The notes: a model not told the origin generated them from the letters alone. A DNA stretch of 64,000 bases from an uncultured Coriobacteriia bacterium (GCA_949879855.1 CATLBX010000002.1:1448-65447), one strand, 5' to 3'. Shown: positions 23,724-63,375, counted from the stretch's first letter. Numbers and translations are program-made.

Positions 23724-23756
23724 AATGAGACAAATACCCTGTGTATTTGTCTCATT
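23724..23756. repeat. Family A REP; contains the fabF stop
   Basis: Perfect copy; TCA at 23752-23754 is the fabF TGA. Confidence 0.95.
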
Positions 23757-25038
23757 CGTAGGGGCTGAAGGCGAGGGTCGCGTTGTGACCGCCGAAGCCG
23801 AGCGAGTTGGAGAGCGCGACCTTCTGCGGCGTGTTCTCGAGAGGCTCGACGACGACGTTGACGGCGCACTCGGGGTCGGCCTCGGCAAAGCCGGCCGTGG
23901 GCGGAACGCAATCGCGGGCAACCGAGAGCGCGCAGACGATGGCCTCGACGGCACCGGCCGCACCGAGCGTGTGGCCCGTCGTGCCCTTGATGGAGGTCAC
24001 CGGAATCTTCGCGGCGAGCTCGTCGTCATCGCACAGCGCGTAGAGCGCGATCGACTCGGTCTTGTCATTGGCGGGCGTGCCCGTGCCATGGGCGTTGACG
24101 TGGCCGATGTCGGCGGGCGTGAAACCGCCCTCCTCGAGCGCCTGGCGCATGGAGCGCACGATGCCGGCGCCCTCGGGGTCGGGGGCCGTCATGTGGTAGG
24201 CGTCGCCGGTCGAGCCGTAGCCGGTTATCTCGGCGAGGGGCGTCGCGCCACGCTTGAGCGCATGTTCAAGTGATTCGATGACGAGCGCACCAGCGCCTTC
24301 ACCGGCGACGAAGCCCTTGCGGCGCACGTCGAAGGGAAGGGATGCCTGCGTGGGATCCTCGGTCTTGGAGAGCGCGCCGAGATTGGTGAAGCCGGCGATG
24401 CAGATGGGCGACACCGACTCCTCGGAACCACCGACGAGCGCGGCGTCGGCATAGCCGTGGCGAATGGCGTGAACGGCCTCGCCGATGTTATGCGCACCGG
24501 TCGCGCAGGCCGTGACCACGTTGATGCAGGCGCCATGGATACCGTAGCGGATGGCGAGGTTGCCGGCGGCGATGTTGCCGATCATGGTGGGGACGAACAG
24601 CGGGCTCACGCGCTTGGGGCCCTTGTCGGAAAGCGTCTCGAAGCCCTTCTGCAGCTCGTCGATGCCGCCGATGCCCGTGCCGAAGGCGATGGCGACGCGC
24701 GTGGAGTCGACCTCGTCCATGTTCAGGCCAGCCTGAGCCATGGCCTCGTCGGCCGCGACCATGGCGTACTGGACGAAACGCTCGAAGCGGCGGGCCTCCT
24801 TCTTGGAGAGGCCGTGCTCGGTGGCGTCGAAGTCACGCACCTCGCCGGCGTTGTGGACCTCGTATTCGGAGGTGTCGAAACGCTCGATAGGTGCGATGCA
24901 GCACTGCTTGCCCATGACCGCATCCCAGAGCGCGTCCACACCGACACCGGCCGGTGAGACGGCGCCCATGCCCGTGATGACGACGCGTTGCGTGCCATCG
25001 GGACGGCGTAGGTTCATGTTCTCGTTTGTCGTGCTCAT
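23752..25038 (-). CDS. fabF: 3-oxoacyl-ACP synthase II
   Basis: VVITGMG, TACATG, DAYHMT, NAHGTGT, KGTTGHTLGAAG, NSLGFGGHN. Confidence 0.96.
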   Translation of the reverse strand: MSTTNENMNLRRPDGTQRVVITGMGAVSPAGVGVDALWDAVMGKQCCIAPIERFDTSEYEVHNAGEVRDFDATEHGLSKKEARRFERFVQYAMVAADEAMAQAGLNMDEVDSTRVAIAFGTGIGGIDELQKGFETLSDKGPKRVSPLFVPTMIGNIAAGNLAIRYGIHGACINVVTACATGAHNIGEAVHAIRHGYADAALVGGSEESVSPICIAGFTNLGALSKTEDPTQASLPFDVRRKGFVAGEGAGALVIESLEHALKRGATPLAEITGYGSTGDAYHMTAPDPEGAGIVRSMRQALEEGGFTPADIGHVNAHGTGTPANDKTESIALYALCDDDELAAKIPVTSIKGTTGHTLGAAGAVEAIVCALSVARDCVPPTAGFAEADPECAVNVVVEPLENTPQKVALSNSLGFGGHNATLAFSPYE

Positions 25039-25796
25039 AGGGAAAGTCCTCCGTCGATGCTGATTACCTGGCCGGTGATGTAGGATGCCGCGGGGCTTGC
25101 CAGGAAGGCCACGAGGTCGGCCACGTCCGCGGCCTCGCCCAGACGGCCAAGGCCGATCTGGGACGTGATGGCTTCCTTCTGCTGGTCGTTCAGGGCATCG
25201 GTCATGTCGGTCGCGATGAAACCGGGGGCAACGGCGTTGACCCTGATGCTGCGACGCGCGAGCTCCTTGGCGAGCGACTTGGTGAGGCCGATGACGCCGG
25301 CCTTGGAGGCCGCATAGTTGGCCTGGCCCGCGTTGCCCGCGATGCCGACGATGCTGCTCATGTTAACGATCGCGCCACTGCGCTGCTTCATCATGTACTT
25401 GGCCGCGGCCTTGCAACAATTGAAGGTGCCCTTGAGGTTCACGTCGATGACGGCGTCGAAGTCGTCCTCGCCCATGCGGGCGATGAGGCCGTCGCGCGTG
25501 ATGCCGGCGTTGTTGACCAGCACGTCAATGCGGCCGAGCTCGGCCACCGTCTCGTCCACGAGCGCCTTGGCGGCATCGGCATTCGCAACGTTTGCCACGA
25601 CGACCAGCGTGCGCACGCCGTAATCGTTGGCAATCTGCTCGGCAGCCTGGGTGGTGCGCTCGAAGCTCGACTCGCTCGAGCAGTTGAGGCACACGTCGTG
25701 GCCGCCTGCGGCAAGCGCCTGCGCACAGGCAAGGCCAATGCCACGGCCTGAGCCGGTGACAAGGGCGACGGGGGCGGCCTGATCGGTGTTACTCAT
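25035..25796 (-). CDS. fabG: 3-oxoacyl-ACP reductase
   Basis: TGSGRGIG, NNAGITRD, NYAASKAG; fab operon context. Confidence 0.96.
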   Translation of the reverse strand: MSNTDQAAPVALVTGSGRGIGLACAQALAAGGHDVCLNCSSESSFERTTQAAEQIANDYGVRTLVVVANVANADAAKALVDETVAELGRIDVLVNNAGITRDGLIARMGEDDFDAVIDVNLKGTFNCCKAAAKYMMKQRSGAIVNMSSIVGIAGNAGQANYAASKAGVIGLTKSLAKELARRSIRVNAVAPGFIATDMTDALNDQQKEAITSQIGLGRLGEAADVADLVAFLASPAASYITGQVISIDGGLSL

Positions 25797-26757
25797 CGCT
25801 TTCCCTCCACGATTGTTCGAGCTCCTCGAAGCTCGGTCTATCTTGCACGCAGCTGCGCTTGGCCTCCTTGTCGATGCGACGCACGAGGCCGCTCAGCACA
25901 CCGCCGAAGCCGACCTCGATGAAGGTGTCCGCGCCGGCCTGCCCGAGCGCCTCGACGCTCTGCTGGAAGCGCACCGGATGCGTGAGATGATCGACCAGAT
26001 GCTGGTGCACGCTCGTCGCGTCGAGCGGCTTGGCGTCGGTGTTGCAGATCACGGGAATGGACGGCTCCTTGAAGTCGACCGTCGCAAGGTATTCCGCAAA
26101 GGGCTCGCACGCCGACTCCATGAGCGGGCTGTGAAACGCGCCCTGCGTGGCCAGGCGACTGAGCTTGCCACCCTGTTCCTTCCAGGCCTCCTCCGCACGC
26201 TCGATAGCCTCGACGCTACCGGCCACGACAATCTGGCCGGGGCAGTTGTAGTTGGCGGGCGCGAGCACGTCGCCTTGGGCACATTGCTCGCACAGCGCCG
26301 TGACGCTTTCCTCGTCGCCCTTGAGCAGCGCGGTCATCGCGCCGGGATGGGAGCGGGCCGCCTCGTCCATGACGCGCGAGCGCACCTCGATGAGGCGGAA
26401 GGCCTCCTCGTCGGTGAGCATGTCGGCGAGCGCGAGAGCGCTGATCTGGCCGAGCGAGAAGCCGAGCAGTGCGTCGGGCGTGATGCCGCGGGTCATGAGA
26501 GCGCGGCCGATGCCGATGGAGAGCGCGGCGATGGCGACCTGTGCGTTGCGCGTCTCGTTGAGCTGCGCCTGCGCCTCGTCGCCCTCGCTGTTGACGAGCG
26601 CGGCGATGTCGCGGCCGAACACGTCGGATGCGCATTCGAGCGAGGCCTTCACCTCGGGCACGCCAAAGAGCGAGACGCCCATGCCGGGCTTCTGCGAGCC
26701 CTGGCCCGAGGCCATGAACACGGTCTTCACGGGACCGATTCCTTCGAGTTGATCCAT
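25789..26757 (-). CDS. fabD: Malonyl-CoA:ACP transacylase
   Basis: GQGSQ, GFSLGQ, AFHSPLM. Confidence 0.94.
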   Translation of the reverse strand: MDQLEGIGPVKTVFMASGQGSQKPGMGVSLFGVPEVKASLECASDVFGRDIAALVNSEGDEAQAQLNETRNAQVAIAALSIGIGRALMTRGITPDALLGFSLGQISALALADMLTDEEAFRLIEVRSRVMDEAARSHPGAMTALLKGDEESVTALCEQCAQGDVLAPANYNCPGQIVVAGSVEAIERAEEAWKEQGGKLSRLATQGAFHSPLMESACEPFAEYLATVDFKEPSIPVICNTDAKPLDATSVHQHLVDHLTHPVRFQQSVEALGQAGADTFIEVGFGGVLSGLVRRIDKEAKRSCVQDRPSFEELEQSWRESDE

Positions 26758-26770
26758 GATGCTCGTCTTC

Positions 26771-27754
26771 CTAAACGTCAGCGTCTTCCAGGCAGCGACC
26801 CTGGCGAGCGTTGAGCTCGGCCATCGCGGCAAGGTCGAGCGCGCCAAGCGTCTCGGCCTCGGCCATGAGCTCGGCGATGAGCTCGCGTGCCGTGCCGCGC
26901 TTCTTCACGATTGCGGCAATCTGACCGGCGAGGATGGAGCCGTTCTCCATGTCGCCCTCAACTGCACGTTTGAGCGAACCTGCATACATGCCCTCGAGGT
27001 CTTCGGGGTTGCTGCACTCCATCTCGCGCTTGCGACAAGCGCGGGCGAACTTGTTCTTGAGGCCGCGCACGGGATGACCCGTACCGCGCCCGGTCACGAT
27101 GGTGTCGGAATCCTTGGCGCCGAGCACCTTCTCCTTCCACGGGTCGCAGACAGTGCACTCCTCGATGGTGAGGAAGCGCGTGCCCATCTGCACGCCCTCG
27201 GCACCGAGCGCGAACGCCGCGCAGATGCCGCGACCGTCGGCGATGCCGCCGGCGGCGATGACGGGGATGGAGACGGCCTCGCGCACGGACGGCACGAGTG
27301 CCATCGTGGTGAGCTCACCGACGTGACCGCCGGATTCGGTGCCCTCGGCGACCACGGCGTCGACGCCCAGTCGCTCCATGCGGCGGGCCTGCGCCGTCGT
27401 GGCGATGACGGGGATGACCTTGATGCCCGCCTCGCGCCACAGGGGCAGGTACTCGACGGGGCTGCCGGCGCCCGTGGTGACAACCTTGACGCCGAGCTCG
27501 ACCATGAGCTTGGCGACCTCGGGGGCGAGCGGGTCCATGAGCATGACGTTGCAGCCGAAGGGCTTGCTCGTCTGGGCCTGGGCCTGCTTGACCTGGTCGG
27601 CAATCCAATCGAGCTTGGCACCGCCGCAGGCGATGATGCCCAGGCCGCCGGCCTCGCTGACCGCAGCGGCAAGGGACGCGTCCGCGACGCGCGCCATGCC
27701 GCCTTGGATGATGGGCGCTTCGATGCCCAGCAGTTCAGTTACTCTCGTCTTCAT
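26771..27754 (-). CDS. fabK: Enoyl-ACP reductase FabK
   Basis: PIIQGGM, EGTESGGHVG, IAAGGIADG, QMGTRF. Confidence 0.93.
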   Translation of the reverse strand: MKTRVTELLGIEAPIIQGGMARVADASLAAAVSEAGGLGIIACGGAKLDWIADQVKQAQAQTSKPFGCNVMLMDPLAPEVAKLMVELGVKVVTTGAGSPVEYLPLWREAGIKVIPVIATTAQARRMERLGVDAVVAEGTESGGHVGELTTMALVPSVREAVSIPVIAAGGIADGRGICAAFALGAEGVQMGTRFLTIEECTVCDPWKEKVLGAKDSDTIVTGRGTGHPVRGLKNKFARACRKREMECSNPEDLEGMYAGSLKRAVEGDMENGSILAGQIAAIVKKRGTARELIAELMAEAETLGALDLAAMAELNARQGRCLEDADV

Positions 27755-27767
27755 GAAGCGCGTCGAC

Positions 27768-27989
27768 CTACTTCAGGGAGTCGATGTGGGCGACGATGTC
27801 GCCGATGGTCTTCAGATCGCCCGGCTCGCCAAAGTCAATCTCGCACTTGTCCTCGATGTCGCAGACGAGCTCGACCATATCGAGCGAGTCAATGCCCAGA
27901 TCCTCGATGACGGCATCTTCGGTGATAGCCTCCGGATCGAGATCCTGATTCTCGACCAGCACCTCGCGAACGATGTCGATTGTAGCCAT
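27768..27989 (-). CDS. acpP: Acyl carrier protein
   Basis: DLGIDSLDMVEL. Confidence 0.95.
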   Translation of the reverse strand: MATIDIVREVLVENQDLDPEAITEDAVIEDLGIDSLDMVELVCDIEDKCEIDFGEPGDLKTIGDIVAHIDSLK

Positions 27990-28181
27990 GACGGTTCCTT
28001 TCACACGTGTCTAACTTTCGAGCGCGATAATTGTAGACGAAGTTCACGCACGCAAGCCACAATGGAAAATCTTGCGCAAACATAGGTGGGCATGTCCCGT
28101 GAGCGGGAGACATGCATTAAGATTGTCACGCATTGTCCCGCTTGAAGCGGGACGTCGGGCTATCAGCAAGGAGATGCGGTA

Positions 28182-29255
28182 ATGGGATGCAAGATCGTCG
28201 GACATGGTAAAGCCCTACCGGAGCTCATCGTGAGCAATGACGACATGGCGAAAGTCGTCGACACCAGCGACGAGTGGATCGTCGAGCGCACGGGCATCCA
28301 CAACCGCCGCATCGCCGTGGAAGAAACGACCACGAGCCTTGGTACGGATGCGGCACGCAACGCCCTTGCCGACGCTGGCCTCGCAGCCGATGATATCGAC
28401 CTCATCGTCTGCATGACCATCTCGGCTGACGCCGTGGTGCCCTCCCAGGCCGCCCTCGTCAAGATGCAGCTGGGCGCGAACAACGCCGTCGCCTTTGACC
28501 TGAACGCCGCGTGCACGGGATGCATCTACGGCATGGACGTGGCCTCCACGATGATCGAGGCATCGGTTGCCAGCGAGGACGGAAGTGGCATCGGGCATAG
28601 GCGCAACGCGATGCGCCGTGCGCTCGTCGTGGGTGCCGAGCGCCTCTCGCGCATCGTCGACTGGACCGACCGCGCCACCTGCGTGCTCTTTGGCGATGGC
28701 GCCGGTGCCGTCGTGCTCGAGTGGGACGACAACGCGCCGGGCATCATGGCGAGCGTCCTGAAGAACACCGACGACGAGGCGCTGTGTCTGACCGTCGACG
28801 CGAACCACGACCTGCGCACCTTCCCCTTTGGCGATGGCGTGCGCATGGAGAGCCTGGGCGAGGTCATGGACATCCGCAACGACGACGGCGAGTTCTGGCC
28901 GCAGCTGCCCTGCATCCGAATGCACGGCCAGCGCGTCTTCAAGTTTGCCACGGCCGCCATCGTGGAGGCAGGCCGCGAGGTGTGCGAGCGCGCGGGCATC
29001 AAATTCGAGGACGTTGCCTGCGTCGTCCCCCACCAGGCCAACGACCGCATCATCCGCTTCGCGGCCAAGAAGCTCGGCGTGCCCTACGAGCGTTGGCAGG
29101 TCTCCATCGGCGAGACCGGCAACACGAGCGCGTCGAGCGTGCTCATGGCGCTGCATGATGCCTACGAGTCCGGGCGCATCCAGCCGGGCGACTACGTGAT
29201 GTGCGTGGGCTTTGGTGGCGGCCTCACAAGCGGCGCGCTGGTGTTCGAAGCGTAG
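28182..29255 (+). CDS. fabH: 3-oxoacyl-ACP synthase III
   Basis: WIVERTGI, AACTG, FGDGAGA, PHQAN, GNTSASS, GFGGGLT. Confidence 0.96.
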   Translation: MGCKIVGHGKALPELIVSNDDMAKVVDTSDEWIVERTGIHNRRIAVEETTTSLGTDAARNALADAGLAADDIDLIVCMTISADAVVPSQAALVKMQLGANNAVAFDLNAACTGCIYGMDVASTMIEASVASEDGSGIGHRRNAMRRALVVGAERLSRIVDWTDRATCVLFGDGAGAVVLEWDDNAPGIMASVLKNTDDEALCLTVDANHDLRTFPFGDGVRMESLGEVMDIRNDDGEFWPQLPCIRMHGQRVFKFATAAIVEAGREVCERAGIKFEDVACVVPHQANDRIIRFAAKKLGVPYERWQVSIGETGNTSASSVLMALHDAYESGRIQPGDYVMCVGFGGGLTSGALVFEA

Positions 29256-29279
29256 GGGACTGACGAGAAGTCGCAACCA

Positions 29280-29312
29280 AACAAAAATGTTCAGCGACTG
29301 AACATTTTTGTT
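29280..29312. terminator. Perfect AT-rich hairpin after fabH, at the left edge of the accessory islet
   Basis: AACAAAAATGTTCAG-CGA-CTGAACATTTTTGTT. Confidence 0.55.
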
Positions 29313-29367
29313 CAATGACTGAAATAAATTTGTTCAGTCGATAAGAGTCCTCTTCTGACCAGGGAAA

Positions 29368-29428
29368 TGCGGCGATTAGCACCTTATTCGCCGCACATTT
29401 TGCGGTGATTATCTTGCTATTCGCCGCA
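29368..29428. promoter_or_regulatory. Two tandem 28-bp palindromes upstream of the Fic gene (candidate operators)
   Basis: TGCGGCGA-N12-TCGCCGCA (29368-29395) and TGCGGTGA-N12-TCGCCGCA (29401-29428). Confidence 0.55.
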
Positions 29429-29448
29429 TCGACATCTAAAATCCTCGT

Positions 29449-39071: not shown

Positions 39072-39623
39072 ATGTCAACTGATTTCATCGCCATCGGGCA
39101 GCGCATCCAGGGCATTCGCGAGGCCTGCGACGTCACGCGCGAGGACATGGCAGCCGACCTCGACGTCGATCTGGAGACCTACACCAAGTGGGAGGAGACC
39201 GGCGCCGACGTGCCCATCTCGGCCATCTATCACATGGCCAACCGCTTCGGCATCGAGTTCACCGAGATCCTGACGGGCAAGTCGGGACACCTCGACACCT
39301 TCCATCTCATCAAGGCGGGCGAGGGCCGCGAGGTCGACCGCATCCCCGGCTACCACTTCGAGGACCTGGCCTGGCGCTTCACGCAGAAGGACTTCCAGCC
39401 GCTGCTCGTTACGCTTGACCCCCACGACGAGCCCGCAGAGCTCGTCGACCACCGCGGCCAGGAGTTCAACTACATCCTCGAGGGTTCCATCGTCTTCACC
39501 TTCGACGACCGCGAAATCATCCTCGATGCGGGTGATTCCATCTTCTTCAATCCGGAGCACATGCACGGGCAGCGCTGCAACAGCGATGTGCCCGCCAAGT
39601 TCCTCACCATCATCAGCGAATGA
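39072..39623 (+). CDS. XRE HTH + cupin regulator
   Basis: IGQRIQGIRE HTH; HRGQEFNYILEG...GDSIFFNPEHMHG. Confidence 0.92.
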   Translation: MSTDFIAIGQRIQGIREACDVTREDMAADLDVDLETYTKWEETGADVPISAIYHMANRFGIEFTEILTGKSGHLDTFHLIKAGEGREVDRIPGYHFEDLAWRFTQKDFQPLLVTLDPHDEPAELVDHRGQEFNYILEGSIVFTFDDREIILDAGDSIFFNPEHMHGQRCNSDVPAKFLTIISE

Positions 39624-39651
39624 GACAAATACACAGGGTATTTGTCTCATT
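39619..39651. repeat. Family A REP; contains the XRE-cupin stop
   Basis: AATGAGACAAATAC-ACAGG-GTATTTGTCTCATT; TGA at 39621-39623. Confidence 0.95.
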
Positions 39652-43772: not shown

Positions 43773-43840
43773 CGCGATACCGTCGTTTCCCTCGTCATTG
43801 GGCTTTGATAGCGTAATCGTTCATTATAACCAGCCCCCAA

Positions 43841-44034
43841 TGTCATTTCGACCGGAGCCACCGTCAGACTTGCTCTCCATATCATTTCGACCGGAGCCGC
43901 CGTCAGGCGGCGTAGTGGAGAAATCTCGTCCTTCCGCTGTGGTTGAGACCGAGATTTCTCGACTCCAGGGCTTCGCCCCTTCGCTCGAAATGACAGTGGG
44001 GGCGTTGCTACGTCTCCTTCGCTCGAAATGGCAC
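43841..44034. repeat. Family B composite repeat
   Basis: Two TCATTTCGACCGGAG units, GGAGAAATCT/AGATTTCTC, two GCTCGAAATG units. Confidence 0.85.
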
Positions 44035-44929: not shown

Positions 44930-44964
44930 AATGAGACAGATTTGTCTGACCAATCTGTCTCATT
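44930..44964. repeat. 35-bp REP variant A'
   Basis: AATGAGACAGAT-TTGTCTGACCA-ATCTGTCTCATT. Confidence 0.9.
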
Positions 44965-44991: not shown

Positions 44992-46053
44992 TTAGATGAG
45001 GGCCATTTGCTCCGCACAGGTGCTATACCAATGGCCGGCGTTGGAAGGGCAGTACGTAGCAGCGGCCTCGCGCGTGAGATAGCCGCCGTACAACGACCCG
45101 CCCAGCGCGGAGACGACCCTGTTGATGCCCTCTTCCCATGAGCCGAAGCTGTAGCTGCCGTATCCCCATGCGTTGTGCGAGCGGAAGCACGCGGCGCCCT
45201 TGCTGCTCTCGACATAGGAGATGGCCGGCGCCCAGCGCGGGTCGACGCCGTTGTCCCAGGCGGCAGCCGCGTAGTACTCGCCCGTGCCGGCCATGGGCGA
45301 ACCCGAGAGGTACGCGTCGATGCGCGGTGCCCAGCTGTCGACGAAATCGGCCTTGTCGGCCGACCATCCCACATGGGAGGCGCTTGCCGACGATGCCGCG
45401 CTGCTTGCCGCACTTGCGGCCTGCTTTTCCTCGGCACTTGCCGAGGATGAGTTGATGACGTACTGGTTTGCCTGCTGCTCCGCGGCCTGGGCTGCGGCGG
45501 CCCGTGCCGCCACGCGCTCGCGGGCCTCGCGGGCCTGCTGCAGCGACGCGAGTGCGTCCTGCGCCGCCTGGTCTGCACCCGCCTTGTCGCTTTCGAGCTG
45601 CTGCCTAGCGTTCTTGAGCTCGGATTCCATCTGGATGGCGTTCTGGATTTCCGCCGTGTTGTACTCGAGGATCCAGTTGTAGGAATCGACGATGGCCAGC
45701 ATGTCGGTGACGCTCGTGGACTCGAGCAGCATCATGAGGATGCTCGACGAATCGTACTCGTACTTGTAGAGCGCCCGCACGCTCTCGTCGGAGCGCTCGC
45801 GCTGTGCGGGGAGCTTGGCTTCGAGCTCGGCAATGCGGGCATCGAGCTGCGCTATCTCGGACGCAAGCTCCTCCTGGCGCGAGATGGCGTCGTTGTAGGC
45901 ATCGGCGCTCGACTTAACCTGCGCCTCGAGCTCGTCTGCTTCTTCGTCTGCGATGGATGTCTGCACAAACCCGCTGCCGACAAGACCAAACACCAGCGCG
46001 ATTAGGGATGCAAGCGCCAGGACGATGCCTCGGTTGAGTGCGTGTTGCAGCAA
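44992..46053 (-). CDS. Secreted coiled-coil protein with C-terminal lysozyme/glucosaminidase-like domain
   Basis: Signal peptide, PcsB-like coiled coil, Ala-rich linker, AISYVESSKG...NAWGYG. Confidence 0.7.
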   Translation of the reverse strand: MLQHALNRGIVLALASLIALVFGLVGSGFVQTSIADEEADELEAQVKSSADAYNDAISRQEELASEIAQLDARIAELEAKLPAQRERSDESVRALYKYEYDSSSILMMLLESTSVTDMLAIVDSYNWILEYNTAEIQNAIQMESELKNARQQLESDKAGADQAAQDALASLQQAREARERVAARAAAAQAAEQQANQYVINSSSASAEEKQAASAASSAASSASASHVGWSADKADFVDSWAPRIDAYLSGSPMAGTGEYYAAAAWDNGVDPRWAPAISYVESSKGAACFRSHNAWGYGSYSFGSWEEGINRVVSALGGSLYGGYLTREAAATYCPSNAGHWYSTCAEQMALI

Positions 46054-46288: not shown

Positions 46289-46321
46289 AATGAGACTACT
46301 ACCCCGTGTATTTGTCTCATT
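46289..46321. repeat. Degenerate family A REP; contains the serC stop
   Basis: AATGAGACTACTAC-CCCGT-GTATTTGTCTCATT; TCA at 46317-46319. Confidence 0.9.
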
Positions 46322-49211: not shown

Positions 49212-49460
49212 GCGCTCCTCCCAACTGACCTGGTTTTTGACCCCACACTCGCATACAGAAACTTTTGCCTGATACTATCTCACTACTCATTTTCTCGCCC
49301 GGGCCACCGTATGTGACCTTAACGGACGGTACGTCTTACCCCTAAGATGCGCCATGCTCACGTCCGGGAAACCCGCACGCTTACGTGGATCCTTTCGACC
49401 GCATCTGCCTTGGACTAGAGCCGTTTTACCAGCTCGCAACCACAGACTTGGGAGGAGCAC
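49212..49460 (-). ncRNA. raiA-motif RNA
   Basis: Closing stem GUGCUCCUCCCAA/UUGGGAGGAGCGC; in-order blocks UGUGGUUG, GAUCCACGUAAG, GAGCAUGG, CUUAG..GUAAG, GGCGAGA, AGUAGUGAGA, GCGAGUGUGGGGUCAA.ACCAGGUCA as recalled for raiA RNAs; TACACT -10 just upstream; PBP and hpf downstream. Confidence 0.88.
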
Positions 49461-49494: not shown

Positions 49495-51711
49495 CTAGAT
49501 TCTCCGCAAAACAAAACAATGGTGGACCTTGGCGTGACGCTCGAAATCCAACGGTATGGTCTTGTCGGTGATGTCCACGACCTGCACGCCCGCGCGTTCG
49601 ATCGTCTCCCGGTCGAGCTTGAATCCACGCAGATTACACGAGAAGACGGCGGCACCGCCACGGGTCAGCAGTCGGCTCACGCCGATGAGCAGTTCCGCGT
49701 GGTCGCGTTGCACGTCCCATCCGCGTTGGCGCATCTTCGCGGAATTCGAGAAGGTGGGCGGGTCGACGAAGATGAGGTCCCAGCGCATCTTGGTGTGCCG
49801 CGTCTGGGTGACCCACTCGACGCAATCGGCGCGCACGAACTCCTGATGGCCGTTCATGAGGCCGTTGAGCTCCATGTTGCGCTCGCCCCATTGCAGGTAG
49901 GTGTTCGAGAGGTCGACGCTCGTCGTGAACTTCGCCCCGCGTGCGGCTGCATAGACGCTGGCCGTGCAGGTGTAGGCGAAGAGGTTGAGGAAGCTCTTGC
50001 CCGCGGCGAGCTTGCCGACCAGCTCGCGCGTGTCGCGATGGTCGAGGAACAGGCCCGTGTCGAGATAGCTCGCGAGGTCCACCTCGAACAGCAGCCCGTT
50101 CTCCTGCGTAACAAGTGCCCCTGACCGGGCGAATGAGACAGATGTGTCTGACCAAACTGTCTCATTTCTTGCGTATTGCGAACCGCCCTTGGCCCGAACG
50201 CGACGCTTCACGAAGATGTCGTCCGCGGGAACATCGAGCACGACGCTCGCGATGTTGAGGGCATCGGTCATGCGGCGCGCGGCCTTGGCCGCATCGATGT
50301 TCTTGGGGGGCACGTACTCGGCAACGTGCACGAGCCGCCTGCCCGCATCCTTGCCCGCTCCCTCGTAGAGGTCGATGGCCATGTTGTAGTCGGGAAGGTC
50401 GGCATCGTAGATGCGAAAGGCCGAGACCTTGTTCTTGGCAGCCCATTTGCGGCGATGCTTGAAGACCTTGTTGAGGCGGTCGGCGAATTGCTGGGCTCCC
50501 GCGTCGTAAACCGCGATGTCGCAATCGCGCACACTCACCTGCGTCCGTTGCCCCGCGCTCGCATGCAGGTCGAAGAGCGCGATATCGCAGGGGGCAGAGC
50601 CGTTCATGCACGCAAAGCCCTCGCTGCGCTCCATGCCCAGATAGGCATCGGCATCTTGGCTACCCACGAGCATGACGGCCGCATCGAGCTGCTTGTAGCC
50701 AAGGAGCTGGCGTGCAAGCTGCGCATAGCATGCGGGCAACGTCGCCTCGGGAACCTCGGCGGTAACGAAGAGGCAGCTCGCGAACACGCCGCGAACATCA
50801 TGATGTCGTGCGAGCGCGGTATCTAGCGCGTTCTCGTCTGCCAGGAACTCGATGAGGGATGCCACGGCGGCGGCCTTGGCCCGGGCTTGCGCGCAGGCTA
50901 TCTCTCGTTCGCGCGCGTCCGTCGCGTATATCGCGACCGCGCGCCGCCCCTCTTGCGCACGGGCGTCGGCTGCATCGAGGGCGGCTTCCCAAAGCCCCTC
51001 GTCGTGACCGAACCACCCGGCAAAGCCCCAGTTGGAGCGCGTGATACCCGGAGCTATGTCGGCTGCTATCAAGGCGGCCTCGATGGCGAGGGTGCCGGCA
51101 GCGGCCATGCTATCCACGAGCACTTCGCCACGGCGCGCGCGTTCGGGCCAGCCGATTGCAAGCAGCATGCCCGCCGCAAGCGTCTCGTGCACGAACGGGG
51201 AGGTGCCTCGCGCGGCTTCGCGATAGCCGCGGTCCTCCAGCGACGTTCCCGACAGGTCGAGGTAGATGGTCGCGCGGTTGCCACGCAGGTTCACCTGGAT
51301 GCGCAGATCGGGATGCTGGGCGTCAACGTCCGGACGTTCGCCGCGCACGTCACGCAGCCGGTCGCAGATGGCGTCCTTCACGCGCAACGCCGTATAGCGG
51401 GTGTCGCGCAACTGGTCGTTGGTGCCACGGGCACTCACGGCGATGGTCGCCCCCACGGCGACGTAATCCTCCCAGGCAAGCTCGTGCACGCCCGCGTAGA
51501 TACTATCGGAATCCGACGCCTTGACGCGTTCGACCACCAGGAGGATGCGACTCGCGACACGCGACCACAGCAGGGCGGTGTAGATCTGCTCCAGGTTCGC
51601 CGTAAACGCGACACCACCGGTCAGGGGTCGAACCTCGTCCATTCCGAGGTCACGTAGCTCCTGACCGAGAATCGGCTCGAGCCCGCTGCCGCATGTCGCG
51701 AAGAGCTCCAT
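49495..51711 (-). CDS. rlmL: Bifunctional 23S rRNA methyltransferase RlmKL-like
   Basis: THUMP, YLDLSG, YRIYDADLPDY-like FRIYDADLPDY, YLDTGLFLDHR, LNLFAYT, DPPTFS. Confidence 0.92.
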   Translation of the reverse strand: MELFATCGSGLEPILGQELRDLGMDEVRPLTGGVAFTANLEQIYTALLWSRVASRILLVVERVKASDSDSIYAGVHELAWEDYVAVGATIAVSARGTNDQLRDTRYTALRVKDAICDRLRDVRGERPDVDAQHPDLRIQVNLRGNRATIYLDLSGTSLEDRGYREAARGTSPFVHETLAAGMLLAIGWPERARRGEVLVDSMAAAGTLAIEAALIAADIAPGITRSNWGFAGWFGHDEGLWEAALDAADARAQEGRRAVAIYATDAREREIACAQARAKAAAVASLIEFLADENALDTALARHHDVRGVFASCLFVTAEVPEATLPACYAQLARQLLGYKQLDAAVMLVGSQDADAYLGMERSEGFACMNGSAPCDIALFDLHASAGQRTQVSVRDCDIAVYDAGAQQFADRLNKVFKHRRKWAAKNKVSAFRIYDADLPDYNMAIDLYEGAGKDAGRRLVHVAEYVPPKNIDAAKAARRMTDALNIASVVLDVPADDIFVKRRVRAKGGSQYARNETVWSDTSVSFARSGALVTQENGLLFEVDLASYLDTGLFLDHRDTRELVGKLAAGKSFLNLFAYTCTASVYAAARGAKFTTSVDLSNTYLQWGERNMELNGLMNGHQEFVRADCVEWVTQTRHTKMRWDLIFVDPPTFSNSAKMRQRGWDVQRDHAELLIGVSRLLTRGGAAVFSCNLRGFKLDRETIERAGVQVVDITDKTIPLDFERHAKVHHCFVLRRI
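50132..50166. repeat. 35-bp REP variant A' inside the rlmKL CDS
   Basis: AATGAGACAGAT-GTGTCTGACCA-AACTGTCTCATT, read as NETVWSDTSVSF. Confidence 0.88.
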
Positions 51712-53753: not shown

Positions 53754-53786
53754 AATGAGACAAATACACAGGGTATTTGTCTCATT
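53754..53786. repeat. Family A REP between the pncB stop and DegV
   Basis: Perfect copy, 2 nt from the pncB stop. Confidence 0.95.
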
Positions 53787-53788
53787 AG

Positions 53789-55249
53789 CTAATCGTACAG
53801 CGAGCTGTTTCTGCCCGTGGCGATAACCATGTCGTTGCGCCTCTGGAAGAGGCCGCGCTCGATGCCGCAAGGGTATTCGTGCGGGTTCATGAAACGCTTG
53901 ATCGAATCGTCCAGAATCGCGAGCTGCCCGATACATCTCTCGCGCGCGCTTTGGGCCGAGAGGTCGACGTCGTTGACCCTGCCGTCGCTCACGAGCGGCT
54001 TGAGCAGTGTCTCGAAGCATCCCTCCACCTTCTTGCGGCGCGTCGCATCGAGCGGGTCGACCATGATGGCGTCCGCGGGCACGTCGTCGTTCACATCGAT
54101 GATGAGATCGCCGGCCAGTCGCCCGTCGGCATTGAAGTAGCGGCGCACGTCGAGCACGCCGGGGATGGTGCGCTTGTAGAGCTGCTCGGAAATCTTGAGG
54201 CGTGGGCTCCATTCGTCTTGCCCCGGCTCGCGAATGGCCGAGAGCTTGTAGACGCCGCCGAGGGCCGGCTGGCCATAGGCGGCTGCCAGGTGCGTGCCCA
54301 CGCCGAGGGACGTGTACTGGGCCTTCTGGTCGTTGAGCGACATGATCGTGTACTCGTCCAGGTCGTTGGAGAGCACGATGCCCACGTCGGGAAAACCGGC
54401 GCGGTCAAGCATGGAACGCGCCATCTTGGAGAGCCAGGCGAGGTCGCCCGAGTCGATGCGAACGGCCTGGAGCCTGTGGCCGTTTTGCGCGAGCTCGCGG
54501 GCGACGATAATGGCGTTGCTCACGCCCTGCCTGACGTCATAGGTGTCCACGAGCAGCGTGCAGTTGTCGGGCATCTCGGCCGCATACGCCCTGAAGGCGG
54601 TGAGCTCGTCGGGAAACGACATGACCCACGAATGCGCATGGGTGCCGCCAACGGGAATGCCGTAGCGCTTGCCCGCGAGCACGTTGGCCACCGAGGCGCA
54701 TCCGCCCACGTAGGCGGCACGCGACGCCGACATCGCGCCATCGGGGCCTTGGGCGCGGCGCAGGCCGAACTCGGAGACGGGGCGTCCCTCGGCCGCCTTG
54801 CAGATGCGCGCGGCCTTGGTCGCGATAAGCGTCTGGAAGTTGATGCCGTTGAGGATGGCCGGCTCGAGCAACTGGCATTGCAGTAGCGGGCCGGTCACGC
54901 GCACGAGCGGCTCACGCGGGAAAACGGGAGAGCCCTCCGGCACAGCGCATATGTCGACCGACAGCTCGAGCTGGCGCAGCCAGGTGAGGAAGCCGGGATC
55001 GAAAAGAGGCGTCTTTGCCGCGGTGGTCAGGGACGCGAGGTATTCGATGTCGTCATCGGTGAAGCCAAAGCCGTCGACGAGCTCGGCGATCTGGTTGGCG
55101 CCGCAGAAGACGCCGTATCCTCCCCCGAAGGGGTTGTCGCGATAGAACGAATAGAAGCACGCCTCGGTGTCGAGCTTGCCCTGCGACCAATAGCCCTGGG
55201 CCATCGTGATCTCGTAGAGATCGGTCAGCAGCGTCATATTGCGTGCCAT
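53789..55249 (-). CDS. pncB: Nicotinate phosphoribosyltransferase
   Basis: LLTDLYEITM, EFGLRRAQG, GTHAHS, LLVDTYD, RIDSGD, SNDLDE, GGVYKL. Confidence 0.96.
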   Translation of the reverse strand: MARNMTLLTDLYEITMAQGYWSQGKLDTEACFYSFYRDNPFGGGYGVFCGANQIAELVDGFGFTDDDIEYLASLTTAAKTPLFDPGFLTWLRQLELSVDICAVPEGSPVFPREPLVRVTGPLLQCQLLEPAILNGINFQTLIATKAARICKAAEGRPVSEFGLRRAQGPDGAMSASRAAYVGGCASVANVLAGKRYGIPVGGTHAHSWVMSFPDELTAFRAYAAEMPDNCTLLVDTYDVRQGVSNAIIVARELAQNGHRLQAVRIDSGDLAWLSKMARSMLDRAGFPDVGIVLSNDLDEYTIMSLNDQKAQYTSLGVGTHLAAAYGQPALGGVYKLSAIREPGQDEWSPRLKISEQLYKRTIPGVLDVRRYFNADGRLAGDLIIDVNDDVPADAIMVDPLDATRRKKVEGCFETLLKPLVSDGRVNDVDLSAQSARERCIGQLAILDDSIKRFMNPHEYPCGIERGLFQRRNDMVIATGRNSSLYD

Positions 55250-58392: not shown

Positions 58393-58410
58393 GCGGATAT
58401 GGTGCTCCGT

Positions 58411-60948
58411 CTACTTCTTGGCCGCGGTCTTCTTCTTTGCCGTGGACTTCTTCTTGGCCCCGCCGCTCGGCTTCTTGGCCTTCTCGGCCTTTTCCTTCTC
58501 GCGCTTGGGGCAGTTCATGTTCACGCAGATGCGCCACGGTCCGCGCGTCGTCGAGACGATGACCTCGGGAGCTCCGCATTCGTCGCAGACCTCGCCGGTG
58601 GCGGTAATGTCACCGCGCTGCGGGAGCGGATAGCTCACGTCGCACTGCTCGAAATTCTCGCAGCGAATGAAGCGCTTGAGCGTGCGCGGGTTCTTCTGGG
58701 CGATGAGCTTGCCCTCGCGGCCAGCCTCCTTGCAGACCGCGCACTCCCCGACGACGATCTCCTCCATCTTGTTGGTGGGGCACTCGGGGTCGAGACAGTG
58801 GTTGTAGGCCTTCTGCCTGAAGGGCGTGACCTTGATCTGCGGGCCACCGCAGGTGGGGCATGGCTCCTCGAGGGCTTCGTAGCGGCCCTGGGGCAGCGGG
58901 TAGGTGACGTCGCAATCGGGCCAGTTGTTGCAGCCCACGAAGCTCGAACGCGTCTTGGCCGAGGTCTTCACGCACAGGTCACCGCCGCACTTGGGGCAGG
59001 CGCCCACGCGGCTGTCGGCCGTGACGGCGTCGCTGATCATGTCCGCGATGGCGTCCTTCTCGGGAATGAGGGCCTCGATGATGCCGCCCAGCAGCTCGCG
59101 CGAGTGCAGCACGACCTCGTCGCGCTGGCGCTTGCCATCGGCGACCTGCGTCATCTCGCCTTCGAGCTCGGCGGTCATGTTGGGCGTGGTGATGGGCTCG
59201 GCGAACTTCTCGAGCGCGTCGATGATGGCGATGCCGAGCTGGGTGGGCTCGATGGGATCGTTCACGATGTAATGGCGGCTATAGAGGCGCTCGATCATGT
59301 CGTGGCGCGTGGCCTTGGTGCCCAGGCCCTTGGCCTCCATCTCCTGCACGAGCTTGCCTGACGAGAAGCGCGCGGGCGGCTCGGTCTGCTTGTGGGCGCA
59401 CTCGGCGTCCCAGAAGTCGAGCGTCTGGCCCTCGGAAAGCGGCGGCATCTGCTCGTCCTTCTTGAGGCCGTAGGGATACACGCTGCGATAGCCGGGCTCC
59501 ACGAGCACGTCGCCGCGCGCGTTGAAGGGCTCGCCGGCGACATCGAGAGTGACCTTCGTCGACTCGAGGACGGCGGGCTCGGACAGCGTCGCCATGAAGC
59601 GACGGCAGATGAGGCTGTAGAGCTTCCACTCCTCGGGACGCAGCTTGTCCGGGTCGGCCGCCCCCGTGGGGTAAATGGGGGGATGGTCGGTCGTCTCCTG
59701 CTTGCCGCGCGTGGCGGTGAGCTTGTCCTTGGCCAGCAACGACTCGGCTCCCTCGCGGAAGTCGGGAACCTTGGCGAGGATGTCCAGGACCTCGCGCAGG
59801 TCGAGGTTGTCGGGGTACACCGTGTTGTCGACGCGGGGGTACGAGGTGTAGCCGTTCATGTAAAGCGACTCGGCGATGCGCATGGTGCGCGCGGGCTTGA
59901 TGCCGATGGAGCTTGCCGCTGCCATGAGCGAGGTGGTGTTGAACGGCGCGGGCGGATTGGACTTGCGGCGCTTCTTCTCGATGGCGCCGACCGTCGCCTC
60001 GCTCGTGCCGGATATGCGCGCCATGACGGCGTCGGCCTCGTCCTTGTCCTTGAAGCGCGCCGTGGCGTGCGTGGCGACGAAGGCGTCGTCACGCGCGTCC
60101 TTGGGGGCGGCGTTGCCGGTGATGACCCAGTAGTCCTCGGGCACGAAGGCATCGCGCTCCTTCTCGCGCTCGACCACGAGGGCGAGCGTGGGCGTCTGGA
60201 CGCGGCCGGCGGAACGCGTGTTGCCGATGCCGCTGTACTTCACGCAGGTGAGGTAGCGCGTGAGCACGGCGCCCCAGATGAGGTCGATGTACTGGCGCGT
60301 CTCACCCGCATGGGCGAGGTCATAGTCGAGCGTGGTGAGCTTGGCGGGGGAGAACGCGTCCTCGATCTCCTTCTTCACGAAGGCCGAGTAGCGCGAGCGC
60401 GTGATGGGGGCGGTCTCGTTCACCTCGCGCACCACCGAGATGGCGTCAAGGCCGATGAGCTCGCCTTCGCGATCGAAGTCCGTGGCGATGACGATTTCAT
60501 CGGCCTTCTTGGCGAGGTTCTTGAGCGAGCGGATGATGTCCTTCTCGGCGGGAAGCTTGATGATGGGCGCGTAGGTGAGGTAGGGCAGCGACGGGATCTT
60601 CCAGCCCTTGAGGTTGATGCCTTCGGGCATGTAGGGGCGGCGCTTGGACTTCCACGGCGGCGTGGGGAGGTCCTTGGGGACATCCGGCGCGTCGATGGTC
60701 TCGCCGCTTTCCTCGAGACCCATCCACCCGTTCTTCTTCTTGTAGACGAGCTCCTGCGGGAAGTCGAGACCGAGGATGTGGCCCTTGAGACCGATGGCGA
60801 CGCATTCGTGGCCATCGCGGTTGAAGCGGTATACGGGGGTGTTGTAGACCTTGTCCGTCTGGGGCTTGCCGCCTTGGGCGAGAAGACGGGAGATCTGCTG
60901 GGCTGCAATGTTCTTCTCGGTAATGATCAGTTCCATGTTGTCCATCAC
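58411..60948 (-). CDS. topA: DNA topoisomerase I (type IA) with C-terminal zinc ribbons
   Basis: ITEK, ATDFDREGE, SAGRVQTP, SYPRVD, DHPPIYPT, GLGTKATR; repeated CxxC; Lys-rich tail. Confidence 0.95.
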   Translation of the reverse strand: MMDNMELIITEKNIAAQQISRLLAQGGKPQTDKVYNTPVYRFNRDGHECVAIGLKGHILGLDFPQELVYKKKNGWMGLEESGETIDAPDVPKDLPTPPWKSKRRPYMPEGINLKGWKIPSLPYLTYAPIIKLPAEKDIIRSLKNLAKKADEIVIATDFDREGELIGLDAISVVREVNETAPITRSRYSAFVKKEIEDAFSPAKLTTLDYDLAHAGETRQYIDLIWGAVLTRYLTCVKYSGIGNTRSAGRVQTPTLALVVEREKERDAFVPEDYWVITGNAAPKDARDDAFVATHATARFKDKDEADAVMARISGTSEATVGAIEKKRRKSNPPAPFNTTSLMAAASSIGIKPARTMRIAESLYMNGYTSYPRVDNTVYPDNLDLREVLDILAKVPDFREGAESLLAKDKLTATRGKQETTDHPPIYPTGAADPDKLRPEEWKLYSLICRRFMATLSEPAVLESTKVTLDVAGEPFNARGDVLVEPGYRSVYPYGLKKDEQMPPLSEGQTLDFWDAECAHKQTEPPARFSSGKLVQEMEAKGLGTKATRHDMIERLYSRHYIVNDPIEPTQLGIAIIDALEKFAEPITTPNMTAELEGEMTQVADGKRQRDEVVLHSRELLGGIIEALIPEKDAIADMISDAVTADSRVGACPKCGGDLCVKTSAKTRSSFVGCNNWPDCDVTYPLPQGRYEALEEPCPTCGGPQIKVTPFRQKAYNHCLDPECPTNKMEEIVVGECAVCKEAGREGKLIAQKNPRTLKRFIRCENFEQCDVSYPLPQRGDITATGEVCDECGAPEVIVSTTRGPWRICVNMNCPKREKEKAEKAKKPSGGAKKKSTAKKKTAAKK

Positions 60949-61077
60949 TCACTCGTTTTTGCTGCGTATCTGAAGACAGCTATGGCTTACAATTACCCGC
61001 GGAGACAAGCGGGCGGGGCCGGAAGGCCTCAGTTGCACGATTTTAACCATATATATAAGGTTCTGGCTACCTCCATT

Positions 61078-61839
61078 TTGGAAACGATTAGCCCCACGCG
61101 CTGTATCGCGTGCGACGTTCCCGGCGACGTGCTTTGCCCGAGCTGCGCCTCATCCCTCCCCTTCATCGACCTGTCGCTTGCATGCCCCCGCTGCGGGGCG
61201 CCCTACGGTCGCGTGCTGTGCACCGAATGCCCCATGCCCGGCAGCGAGGAGGCATTGCTGCATCCCGAGGAGGCGGTCCCGTTTGCGCGGGCGCGGGCGG
61301 CGCTGTCGTTCGAAGGCGGTGCGAAGAAGATCATCCGCACGTACAAGGACGGCGACGAACTGCGCCTCGACGCCGTGATCGCGTCGCTGCTATGCGCCGC
61401 CATCCGGGGGAGAAATGAGACAAATACACAGGGTATTTGTCTCATTCCGCAGGTCAGTGAGCCGCTGGGAGACTGGTCACAGTGGGCAGATGCGCTGGCA
61501 TTCGTGCCGGCATCGCCCGAGGCGGTGCGACGGCGTGACTTCGACCACATGGAACGCGTGGCGATGCGCGTGGCCACGCGCACGGGGCTGCCGCTGGCGC
61601 GGTTGCTCACGAGCGAGCGCAAGACTCGCGACCAGCGGGAACTCGGCCGCGGCGAGCGCTTTGCGAATCGAAACGGGTCATTTTCGCTGGCAGCGGATGC
61701 AGCAGGCCCGATACCGCGGCGAATCATCCTCATCGACGACGTTTTCACGACGGGAGCAACGCTCTCGGCAGCATCGCGGGTACTCCTCGACGGCGGAACC
61801 GAGGAGGTGAGGGCAGTGACGTGCTGCAGGGTTTGGTGA
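61078..61839 (+). CDS. comF: ComF family protein (double zinc ribbon + PRTase); start uncertain (TTG 61078 or 61033)
   Basis: PTRCIAC...CPSC...CPRC...CTEC, IILIDDVFTTGATL. Confidence 0.88.
   Translation: METISPTRCIACDVPGDVLCPSCASSLPFIDLSLACPRCGAPYGRVLCTECPMPGSEEALLHPEEAVPFARARAALSFEGGAKKIIRTYKDGDELRLDAVIASLLCAAIRGRNETNTQGICLIPQVSEPLGDWSQWADALAFVPASPEAVRRRDFDHMERVAMRVATRTGLPLARLLTSERKTRDQRELGRGERFANRNGSFSLAADAAGPIPRRIILIDDVFTTGATLSAASRVLLDGGTEEVRAVTCCRVW
61414..61446. repeat. Family A REP in frame inside comF
   Basis: Perfect copy read as [11 protein letters not shown]. Confidence 0.95.
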
Positions 61840-61841
61840 CG

Positions 61842-61874
61842 AAGGAGACAAATACACAGGGTATTTGTCTCATT
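61842..61874. repeat. Family A REP, left flank of the RAYT gene
   Basis: AAGGAGACAAATAC-ACAGG-GTATTTGTCTCATT (one mismatch). Confidence 0.93.
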
Positions 61875-61889
61875 TTGAAAGGAGATTTC

Positions 61890-62648
61890 ATGGATCGGAA
61901 AAGGAAGGCAAGCGAAGGCAACATCTACCATGTGATTTCGCGTGGAACAGGGCGGCAGCTTATTTACGAGACCGATGATGACCGCCGCGTGTTCTTGCAT
62001 CTACTTCGTCAGACAATCGAGGAAGCTGAAATCGAGCTGTACGCATGGTGCCTCATGGGAAATCACTTTCACCTCCTCATTCATGGAGAGATGGAAAGAA
62101 TAGCTACATGCATGCGTCGTCTTTGTAGCTCTTATGCTCGGTGGTTCAATGGTCGGGCTGGCCGTGTGGGCCATTTGTTTCAAGAAAGGTTTAAGAGCGA
62201 GCCCATAGACACTGATGCTTATCTCCTTGCAGTCATTCGCTACATTCACGACAACCCCGCAAAGGCGCGCCTCGACCGGACATCGGAATACCGATGGTCA
62301 AGCTATCGTGAATACGTCGGCAAGCCGACTTTGTGCGCCACGGAGTTCGTCTTGGATATCTTCGGAGGCAAGGAAGCATTTCTGAGATTCCACGAGGAGT
62401 CAGGAAGCTCATGTGCGTGCCTTGATTTCGATGTCCCGAGAAACAAGACACGCCCAATGGATGATGACATGGCCATCGGCATAATGCATCGCGTTCTGGG
62501 GGATGTGGCACCAACGGATTTAAAGACGCTTCCCAAGAAAGCGAGAAACAAACGGCTCAGTGCGTTGAAGCAGAGTGGTCTCTCAGTACGGCAAATCGAA
62601 CGCCTCACGGGCATAGGACGCAATATAATTGCTCGTGTGCAAAAATGA
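61890..62648 (+). mobile_element. REP-associated tyrosine transposase (RAYT, Y1/HUH) with C-terminal HTH
   Basis: YHVISRG, YAWCLMGNHFHLL (HUH), GHLFQERFKS, YIHDNP (catalytic Y), YRWSSY; AAAGGAG RBS; flanked by REPs; lower GC. Confidence 0.93.
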
Positions 62649-62676
62649 GACAAATACCCTGTGTATTTGTCTCATT
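62644..62676. repeat. Family A REP, right flank of RAYT; supplies the stops of RAYT (+) and hypB (-)
   Basis: TGA 62646-62648 on +; TCA 62672-62674. Confidence 0.95.
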
Positions 62677-63322
62677 TCTCGATCTGCTCGGAGAGCCAGT
62701 TGGCCCACGCGTCGCCGCCGTCGCCCTTGGTCGCAGCGATGGGGAAGCTCGGGGCACTCGGGTTGAGGCGTGCGATGTGCTCGTCGAAGAGGTCCTTGTC
62801 GAAGGTGAAGGCCGGCATGACGTCGACCTTGTTGAGGATGATGGCATCGGCCACCTGGAACATGCCCGGGTACTTGAGCGGCTTGTCGTCTCCCTCGGGC
62901 ACCGAGAGAATCATCATCTTGATGTTCTCGCCCAGGTAGAAGTCGGCGGGACACACGAGGTTGCCCACGTTCTCGATGAAAATGAGGTCGATGTTGTCCA
63001 GGTCGAGCACGTCGAGCGCGCGGCGCAGCATGTCACTTTCGAGGTGACAGGCGCCTGCCGTGTTGATCTGGACGGCGGGAATGTCCATGGCCTTGATGGT
63101 CTGCGAATCGACGTCACTCGCGATGTCACCCTCAATGACGGCGATGTTGTACTTGTCACGCAGGGCGTTGATGGTCGCCACGATGGTCGAGGTCTTGCCC
63201 GATCCGGGACTGGCCAGCACATTGACCATGTAAACGCCCTTCTCATCGAGCAGGGCGCGGTTCGCTGCAGCGCCTTCGTCGTTCTTGTTCAGGATCTTCG
63301 TTTCCAGGTCGATATGTGCCAT
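62672..63322 (-). CDS. hypB: Hydrogenase nickel incorporation GTPase
   Basis: SPGSGKT, IEGD, CHLES, ENVGNLVCP, EGDDKPLKYP. Confidence 0.97.
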   Translation of the reverse strand: MAHIDLETKILNKNDEGAAANRALLDEKGVYMVNVLASPGSGKTSTIVATINALRDKYNIAVIEGDIASDVDSQTIKAMDIPAVQINTAGACHLESDMLRRALDVLDLDNIDLIFIENVGNLVCPADFYLGENIKMMILSVPEGDDKPLKYPGMFQVADAIILNKVDVMPAFTFDKDLFDEHIARLNPSAPSFPIAATKGDGGDAWANWLSEQIEK

Positions 63323-63342
63323 CTCGGGCCTCCTTTTGTGAA

Positions 63343-63375
63343 AATGAGACAAATACCCTGTGTATTTGTCTCATT
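63343..63375. repeat. Family A REP; contains the hypA stop
   Basis: Perfect copy; TCA 63371-63373. Confidence 0.95.

Follow-up and report, generated by a model that had tools for sequence, protein, structure and literature searches.

Why should copies of one short palindrome supply the stop codons of several housekeeping genes, and did they land on stops that were already there? The question is raised by a 64-kb stretch of DNA with 61% GC from an uncultured Coriobacteriia bacterium (GCA_949879855.1 CATLBX010000002.1:1448-65447; hereafter, the window), in which a repetitive extragenic palindromic (REP) element provides the TGA at which six genes end. A first-pass annotation made from the sequence alone had noticed these stops between positions 23,724 and 63,375 and had offered two readings, insertion of the repeat at a pre-existing RAATGA target (R, purine) or strong selection. 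We carried out a census of the repeat in the window and in ∼100 kb of one relative, the metagenome-assembled genome (MAG) CAOKAE01, and we compared the occupied junctions with those of repeat-free relatives. These comparisons indicate that native stops were displaced by the repeat, which did not simply take them over.

The main form of the element, var1, is a 33-nt perfect palindrome, AATGAGACAAATAC-(CCTGT or ACAGG)-GTATTTGTCTCATT (consensus AATGAGACAAATACNNNNNGTATTTGTCTCATT), found in nine copies in the window where shuffled sequence gives an expectation of zero. Seven of the nine are identical across the 33 nt, inversion of the loop aside, and all are singlets. A looser search recovered two copies of a 35-nt variant, var2 (AATGAGACAG..CTGTCTCATT), so that nine of the 11 copies in the window are extragenic and two intragenic. 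As RNA, var1 is predicted to fold into a 14-bp stem with a 5-nt loop (∼−17 kcal/mol), and the stem is AT-rich although the genome is 61% GC. The stem foot, AATGA/TCATT, carries a TGA on both strands in a single reading frame; because it is symmetric, either end of the repeat, or both at once, can stop a gene. The 33 nt correspond to exactly 11 codons, of which two frames are open throughout (NETNT[QG/LC]ICLI and MRQI..) and the third opens with TGA, and being a palindrome the element reads the same from either end. The repeats gave no match in a scan for intrinsic-terminator patterns. In seven of eight single-sided cases ACAGG is the loop sequence on the sense strand of the upstream gene, an orientation bias that is suggestive only (two-sided P ∼0.07).

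Six window genes, all long open frames with Pfam or NCBIfam support, end exactly on the repeat's TGA. On the minus strand, fabF stops at the right-end TCA (23752-23754) of REP copy 2 (23724-23756), serC at that (46317-46319) of copy 4 (46289-46321, degenerate, with two core mismatches) and hypA at that (63371-63373) of copy 9 (63343-63375). The XRE-cupin gene, on the plus strand, stops at the left-end TGA (39621-39623) of copy 3 (39619-39651). Copy 8 (62644-62676) serves two convergent genes from one palindrome, namely a gene for a REP-associated tyrosine transposase (RAYT; stop at 62646-62648, plus strand) and hypB (62672-62674, minus strand). Two more copies lie 2 nt past a stop: copy 5 (53754-53786) follows the native TAG of pncB (minus strand), directly upstream of the degV start, and copy 7 (61842-61874), whose left end is mutated to AAGGA, follows the native TGA of comF; both genes retain their native stops and C-termini. 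At four copies the repeat is followed by the ribosome-binding site (RBS) of the next gene and, 15 to 21 nt past the repeat, by its start codon: the ATG of fabZ lies 15 nt beyond copy 2, the GTG of the acyl-CoA synthetase gene 21 nt after copy 3 (with a TAG directly after the repeat), the ATG of the RAYT gene 15 nt after copy 7 and the ATG of hypB 20 nt beyond copy 9. On all of these points, and in finding no target-site duplication (no direct repeat of the flanks around the window copies), our results bear out the first-pass annotation. We add to it the two 35-nt variant copies, the in-frame position of the copy at 61414 in comF and a copy at 335, outside the range that it covered.

The copies are not placed at random. 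Seven of the nine extragenic copies lie between −9 and +2 nt of a stop, compared with 10% of the permitted positions (binomial P = 3.9 × 10⁻⁶, on a crude gene map of our own built from open reading frames [ORFs], GC content at third codon positions and Pfam matches, with ∼54 genes and ∼6.5 kb of intergenic DNA). The frame is biased as well: in the two genomes together, 13 to 14 real genes run into the repeat in its TGA frame and no more than one, an unverified read-through, in another frame, where one-third would be expected in the TGA frame (P ∼6 × 10⁻⁶). Stop usage in the window is TAG 30, TAA 14 and TGA 9, an order that is unusual for a 61% GC genome. The repeat makes six of the nine TGA stops, and native TGA is rare, at three of the 47 stops that the repeat does not make. 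Some 37 RAATGA sites in the window are without a repeat. Thus, the earlier claim that stop codons and operon junctions are targeted holds as far as placement is concerned; recognition of a stop codon or of RAATGA is unsupported.

The second genome behaves similarly. CAOKAE01, ∼94 to 95% identical to the window in the overlapping parts, was the sole repeat-carrying genome in the reference collection when genome contigs were searched with the core pattern (13 loci), and the same pattern used against metagenome contigs returned only its species again. Its 13 loci of 8 kb hold ∼27 copies of the family, var1 and var2 together, and eight Pfam-supported genes stop on a repeat TGA (TfoX_N, LigT, Y_phosphatase3, DUF488, IF-2B, aminotransferase, AIRC and hypB), with LigT and Y_phosphatase3 both stopped by one palindrome. 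One mutated repeat end (TAGGAGAC) gives a TAG stop instead. The var2 copies of this MAG are mostly doublets with spacers of 20 to 28 nt. Specifically, REPIN-like doublets with a ∼20-nt spacer containing GGTACCAG were seen at L004 4300-4385 and 5053-5142, L006 5450-5539 and L005 ∼3430-3502.

What the genes looked like before the repeat can be read from orthologous junctions that lack it. These empty sites come from relatives at 75 to 96% protein identity and are not recent polymorphisms. None of the 11 native stops is TGA; all are TAG or TAA and lie within ∼3 codons (−3 to +3) of the repeat-made stop, and none of the repeat-free junctions has RAATGA at the stop position. The C-termini, which the first-pass annotation had taken to be native in length, proved to be so in part. 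In the XRE-cupin family 118 of 120 homologues end in I[AST]E, and the window protein, ending ..IISE, is exactly native; repeat-free relatives read GAA-TAG (L039 and L040) or GAA-TAA (L041), followed by a 15-nt RBS spacer and GTG, and a 93% identical relative (L036) has another variant of the repeat shifted by 3 nt, such that the stop is TAA (a T plus the repeat's AA), followed by TGA. SerC, likewise native in length, matches its NCBIfam profile up to the last position but one. By contrast, FabF (..SPYE-TGA) falls 1 aa short of the nearest relatives that lack the repeat. A 96% identical relative (L030) has ..SPYTG-TAA and a decayed repeat-like hairpin 10 nt downstream; relatives at 87 to 88% end in ..SPYAA or ..SPYVA, and the one of these read as DNA (L034, ..SPYVA) stops on TAG; a relative at 95% has ..SPYE-TGA and then a decayed repeat. 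HypB (..EQIEK-TGA) is 2 to 3 aa shorter than repeat-free relatives, which end ..EQIEAAK-TAG (93% identity), ..AFRN-TAG (90%) and ..EAAK-TAA (83%), the native stop being TAG in L014 and L015-17 and TAA in L019. The acidic tail of HypA is variable (PDD-TAG, PDDEDSPA-TAG and PDDEEDEE-TAA, compared with PDDDE-TGA in the window), with native stops TAG in L014, L018 and L015 and TAA in L019; in the MAG (L004), hypA stops on TAA although a repeat is present at that junction. Longer C-termini in orthologues, which the first-pass annotation had named as evidence against native stops, were thus found for fabF and hypB and not for XRE-cupin and serC. Since the native stops are all TAG or TAA within ∼3 codons, the sequences indicate that the repeat replaced native TAA/TAG stops and did not adopt native stops or a RAATGA target. 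Of the two readings put forward originally, selection fits better than RAATGA insertion.

We also deleted 31 or 33 nt in silico at the occupied junctions. A stop was restored only at the XRE junction, by the TAG directly after the repeat. A clean simple insertion at fabF, hypA and hypB was rejected, the deletion leaving a stop-less read-through that for fabF and hypA fuses the gene with the next one. Hairpins exist in the repeat-free junctions and are weak (z = −1.3 to −2.4). We observed, in addition, that the fabF-fabZ (23704-23759) and comF-RAYT (61839-61894) junctions share a 56-nt stretch that is 91% alike and continues past the repeat, taking in TTGAAAGGA and ATGGA. A mobile unit carrying an RBS was considered and rejected, as relatives lacking the repeat conserve both the RBS and the start codon of fabZ; because of this conservation, the likeness past the repeat is probably RBS convergence.

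The RAYT-like gene (61890-62648, plus strand) encodes a Y1 (HUH) transposase and lies between copies 7 and 8, which are inverted relative to each other (loops ACAGG and CCTGT, respectively). It matches Pfam Y1_Tnp (E = 5.6 × 10⁻¹³), and the HFH (HUH) and YIHDNP tyrosine motifs can be read in its sequence. Its sole NCBIfam match is "REP-associated tyrosine transposase" (NF047646) at 63.1 bits, under the equivalog cut-off of 80. The protein has a C-terminal extension of ∼110 aa, the final ∼30 aa of which resemble a helix-turn-helix. A PDB sequence search gave no match, even at E = 10, and a single-sequence AlphaFold model (predicted local distance difference test score, 37) was too poor for fold comparison. 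There is one RAYT copy in the 64-kb window. Judged by these features, the gene and its inverted flanking repeats are arranged as in a REP/RAYT unit. Homologues of the neighboring housekeeping genes assign the host to uncultured Coriobacteriia close to Eggerthellaceae. In relatives (L015-L020) the gene order is comF-tatA-tatC-hypA-hypB on a single strand; in the window (60982-64000), the hypB-hypA segment is turned around with respect to comF, with the RAYT gene and its two REPs at one breakpoint of this inversion and the second breakpoint beyond the window.

How, then, does the stop association arise? We consider it probable, though far from certain, that it reflects a stop built into the element of a REP/RAYT system, a preference for gene 3′ ends and purifying selection on the frame, and not recognition of a stop or of RAATGA. 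On this account REPs would accumulate and persist at the 3′ ends of ORFs, often filling the whole operon junction from the stop to the next RBS, and the foot of the hairpin happens to hold a TGA on both strands. Copies overlapping the last codons would survive only with the TGA in frame, since reading in either of the other frames adds 11 or more residues before running on into the next cistron; we infer such a filter from the frame bias. At these junctions the repeat's RAA-TGA has taken the place of the last zero to three codons of the gene together with its native TAA or TAG. Once transcribed, the hairpin may act as a stabilizer of the mRNA 3′ end, an attenuator or a modulator of translation for the flanking genes, by analogy with the REPs of Escherichia coli. 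Two observations weigh against this explanation. The extragenic copies keep to within 0 to 2 nt of the stop even where a longer spacer would leave space, as at serC with ∼235 nt downstream, and random insertion with selection on frame is insufficient here: the account also needs either a bias in insertion or positive selection for proximity. Moreover, removal of the repeat restores no plausible junction at fabF, hypA or hypB, where no stop is left, which means that the events were not simple insertions or are old.

In a second account, which we hold to be possible but doubtful, the repeats would not arrive de novo at stops; resident hairpins or older REPs at gene 3′ ends would be converted in situ to the active variant, by the RAYT or by recombination between the conserved feet, such that positions are inherited while sequences turn over. 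The hypB 3′ junction, ATCGA(G/C)AAATGAGACAAAT, has exactly the same sequence in the window (var1), in the MAG (L004, var2 doublet) and in L018 (var3), with wholly different apical sequences. At hypA-hypB the var1 singlet of the window and the var2 doublet of the MAG share their outer boundaries when read by eye (MAFFT puts the gap elsewhere), and we found no description of a doublet replaced by a singlet of another variant at the same outer boundaries. Close relatives hold other or decayed variants at the same fabF-fabZ and XRE-acyl-CoA synthetase junctions, one of them shifted by 3 nt. In L018 the var3 repeat at the hypB 3′ end is followed by a RAYT gene whose product is only 56% identical to that of the window, and there is a published precedent for RAYT loci that are orthologous yet have REPs of different classes at their flanks (Nunvar et al. 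2013, PMC3686654). However, the 3-nt shift at the XRE junction and the repeat-free state of L014, at 93% HypB identity, argue for some independent gains or losses; the hairpins of repeat-free relatives are weak; and the loci compared are few and the mechanism of overwriting hypothetical.

A stronger version, which we think unlikely, holds that the repeats are actively maintained at stops, with the RAYT or recombination at a 12-nt foot overwriting residents in place and the host tuning termination, mRNA 3′-end stability and coupling to the next cistron by the stop-embedded hairpin. If so, the junctions of each genome would carry its current variant at nucleotide-identical boundaries, and a terminating ribosome would have to melt the stop-embedded hairpin fully.

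If a Y1 transposase had inserted the repeat, without duplication, where an RAATGA or TGA stop already existed, that stop would be native and merely adopted; this reading is largely refuted and we regard it as very improbable. It has some points in its favor. Transposition of the IS200/IS605 type, carried out by Y1 enzymes, creates no target-site duplication, and none is seen here. A purine precedes AATGA (−1) and a pyrimidine follows TCATT (+1) at 19 of 22 repeat ends, the XRE-cupin C-terminus is exactly native, with the native GAA-TAG/TAA having GAAT in common with the repeat end, and the fabF stop of L030 reads TAATGA. Against this stand the relatives' stops, with no TGA among 11 and no RAATGA, the altered C-termini of HypB, FabF and HypA, the unoccupied RAATGA sites and the rarity of native TGA in the window. 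The flanks, furthermore, hold no consistent target or microhomology motif apart from the purine at −1 and pyrimidine at +1 (CG occupies −2/−1 in about half of the repeat ends), and no conserved tetra- or pentanucleotide target as in IS200/IS605-type insertion was found, the upstream flanks sharing only the purine. Lastly, an artefact of ORF calling, in which spurious long frames of a 61% GC genome end by chance at an AT-rich repeat, is refuted and has next to no chance of being correct, for although many spurious ORFs exist, among them a 236-aa case in L009 that has no Pfam match and looks antisense, strong Pfam or NCBIfam matches extend over the C-termini of all six genes in the window and of the eight in the MAG, orthologues have matching ends, and the enrichment at stops is highly significant.

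The preferred explanation, a REP/RAYT system with a built-in stop, draws on behavior already described for other REPs. The element is a short palindrome within the 20- to 40-bp range of REPs, in many mostly extragenic copies, and its Y1 (HUH) gene is flanked by inverted REPs. With the REPs and bacterial interspersed mosaic elements (BIMEs) of E. coli, whose enzyme is TnpA-REP (RAYT), it shares a hairpin structure, a location at operon junctions and at the 3′ ends of genes, and a Y1 HUH enzyme of its own; unlike TnpA-REP, the window RAYT falls below the family cut-off (63 vs. 80 bits), has no PDB match and carries the long C-terminal extension. According to Liang et al. 2015, as cited in PMC12306157, E. 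coli REPs no more than 15 nt from a stop down-regulate translation, and REPs have been described as 3′ untranslated region stabilizers or terminators that stabilize the upstream mRNA and attenuate read-through (bioRxiv 10.64898/2026.03.23.713779). For the GTAG/CGTC super-families, Di Nocera, De Gregorio and Rocco (2013, BMC Genomics 14:522) reported that REP termini often supply the stop codon of flanking ORFs (the TAG of GTAG REPs), that REPs lie near ORF 3′ ends, some being intragenic and coding, and that RAYT genes flanked by REPs are associated with them. The window repeat is alike in its stop-supplying termini, its closeness to ORF 3′ ends, its coding intragenic copies and its REP-flanked RAYT. 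It differs in that neither a GTAG nor a CGTC motif is present in the var1 consensus or its conserved flanks, its stop is TGA and not TAG, its AATGA/TCATT foot is symmetric, its stem is AT-rich in a 61% GC genome, and its host belongs to the Coriobacteriia. Thus, the REP/RAYT family found here is a new one, set apart from the GTAG/CGTC super-families by published descriptions: it lacks their tag, it has the symmetric foot and AT-rich stem, and its RAYT scores under the curated threshold and bears a C-terminal extension. Since stop supply, closeness to 3′ ends and coding copies are all in the 2013 study, its behavior is known in kind.

Other described repeats share single features with it. The 35-nt var2 elements of the MAG, as doublets with a ∼20-nt spacer, resemble REPINs (Bertels and Rainey 2011) in their pairing, unlike the var1 copies of the window, which are singlets and perfect palindromes, and the occurrence of different REP classes at the same RAYT locus in related genomes recalls the REP "orthogroups" of Nunvar et al. 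(2013). Rickettsia palindromic elements (RPEs; discussed in PMC3733652) and intragenic REPs are alike in forming in-frame coding insertions within linkers of conserved genes, here comF and rlmKL. Unlike an RPE, the window repeat is intragenic in only two of 11 copies and is mainly a stop-supplying extragenic hairpin. Mycobacterial interspersed repetitive units (MIRUs) occupy operon junctions, where their ends overlap the preceding gene's stop and the following gene's start; they are 40- to 100-bp tandem direct repeats encoding small ORFs, are not palindromes and have no RAYT. The likeness is that of an operon-junction repeat overlapping a stop, and the difference is that the window repeat is palindromic and accompanied by a RAYT.

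The finding does not establish a new mechanism. It does show housekeeping genes whose ends have been remodeled by a mobile palindrome, which makes two-thirds of the window's TGA stops and forms entire operon junctions. For annotation, this means that C-termini and stop usage are partly repeat-derived. Relatives with different variants at identical boundaries offer a natural experiment on REP turnover and on why REPs sit at 3′ ends.

Both intragenic copies are coding. REP copy 6 (61414-61446), in frame within comF, encodes 11 residues in the linker between the zinc-ribbon and phosphoribosyltransferase domains, which is hypervariable in relatives. A var2 copy (50132-50166, 35 nt) is in frame within rlmKL (49495-51711, minus strand), a bifunctional rRNA methyltransferase gene, and codes for NETVWSDTSVSF, which separates the two methyltransferase halves. 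Counted with its 13-nt flank, which ends in GGTCAG, the rlmKL copy makes up a 48-nt unit, and the unit in comF has the same length. Such a conserved one-sided flank, TCATT-nn-SC(A/C)GGTCAG, accompanies some copies (window 53787-53800, 61447-61461 and 50118-50131; also in L002, L004, L007 and L013), and its GGTCAG motif recurs in the apical part of var2; the flank may be what is left of a doublet partner, or it may be bound by a protein.

Of the two remaining extragenic copies, the other var2 element (44930-44964, 35 nt) lies 27 nt past the stop of the gene at 44992-46053, and REP copy 1 (335-367, 33 nt) is upstream of purA with the nearest stop 117 nt away. The latter stands exactly at the left border of a ∼10-kb segment (370-10451) that is absent from CAOKAE01, in which L011 goes from window position 369 to 10452; the segment encodes a molybdopterin oxidoreductase, a 4Fe-4S protein, two short-chain dehydrogenases/reductases, a major facilitator superfamily transporter, a TetR regulator, a glyoxalase and an FKBP. 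The window also contains a second, unrelated repeat family resembling miniature inverted-repeat transposable elements, ∼135 nt long with terminal inverted repeats TGTCATTTCGA...TCGAAATGACA and internal hairpins, in several full or partial copies (window 13030-13162 and 43833-44030; L021 1-79). Finally, the Rfam raiA RNA motif matches the minus strand at 49216-49456 with 158 bits (E = 1.4 × 10⁻³⁹).

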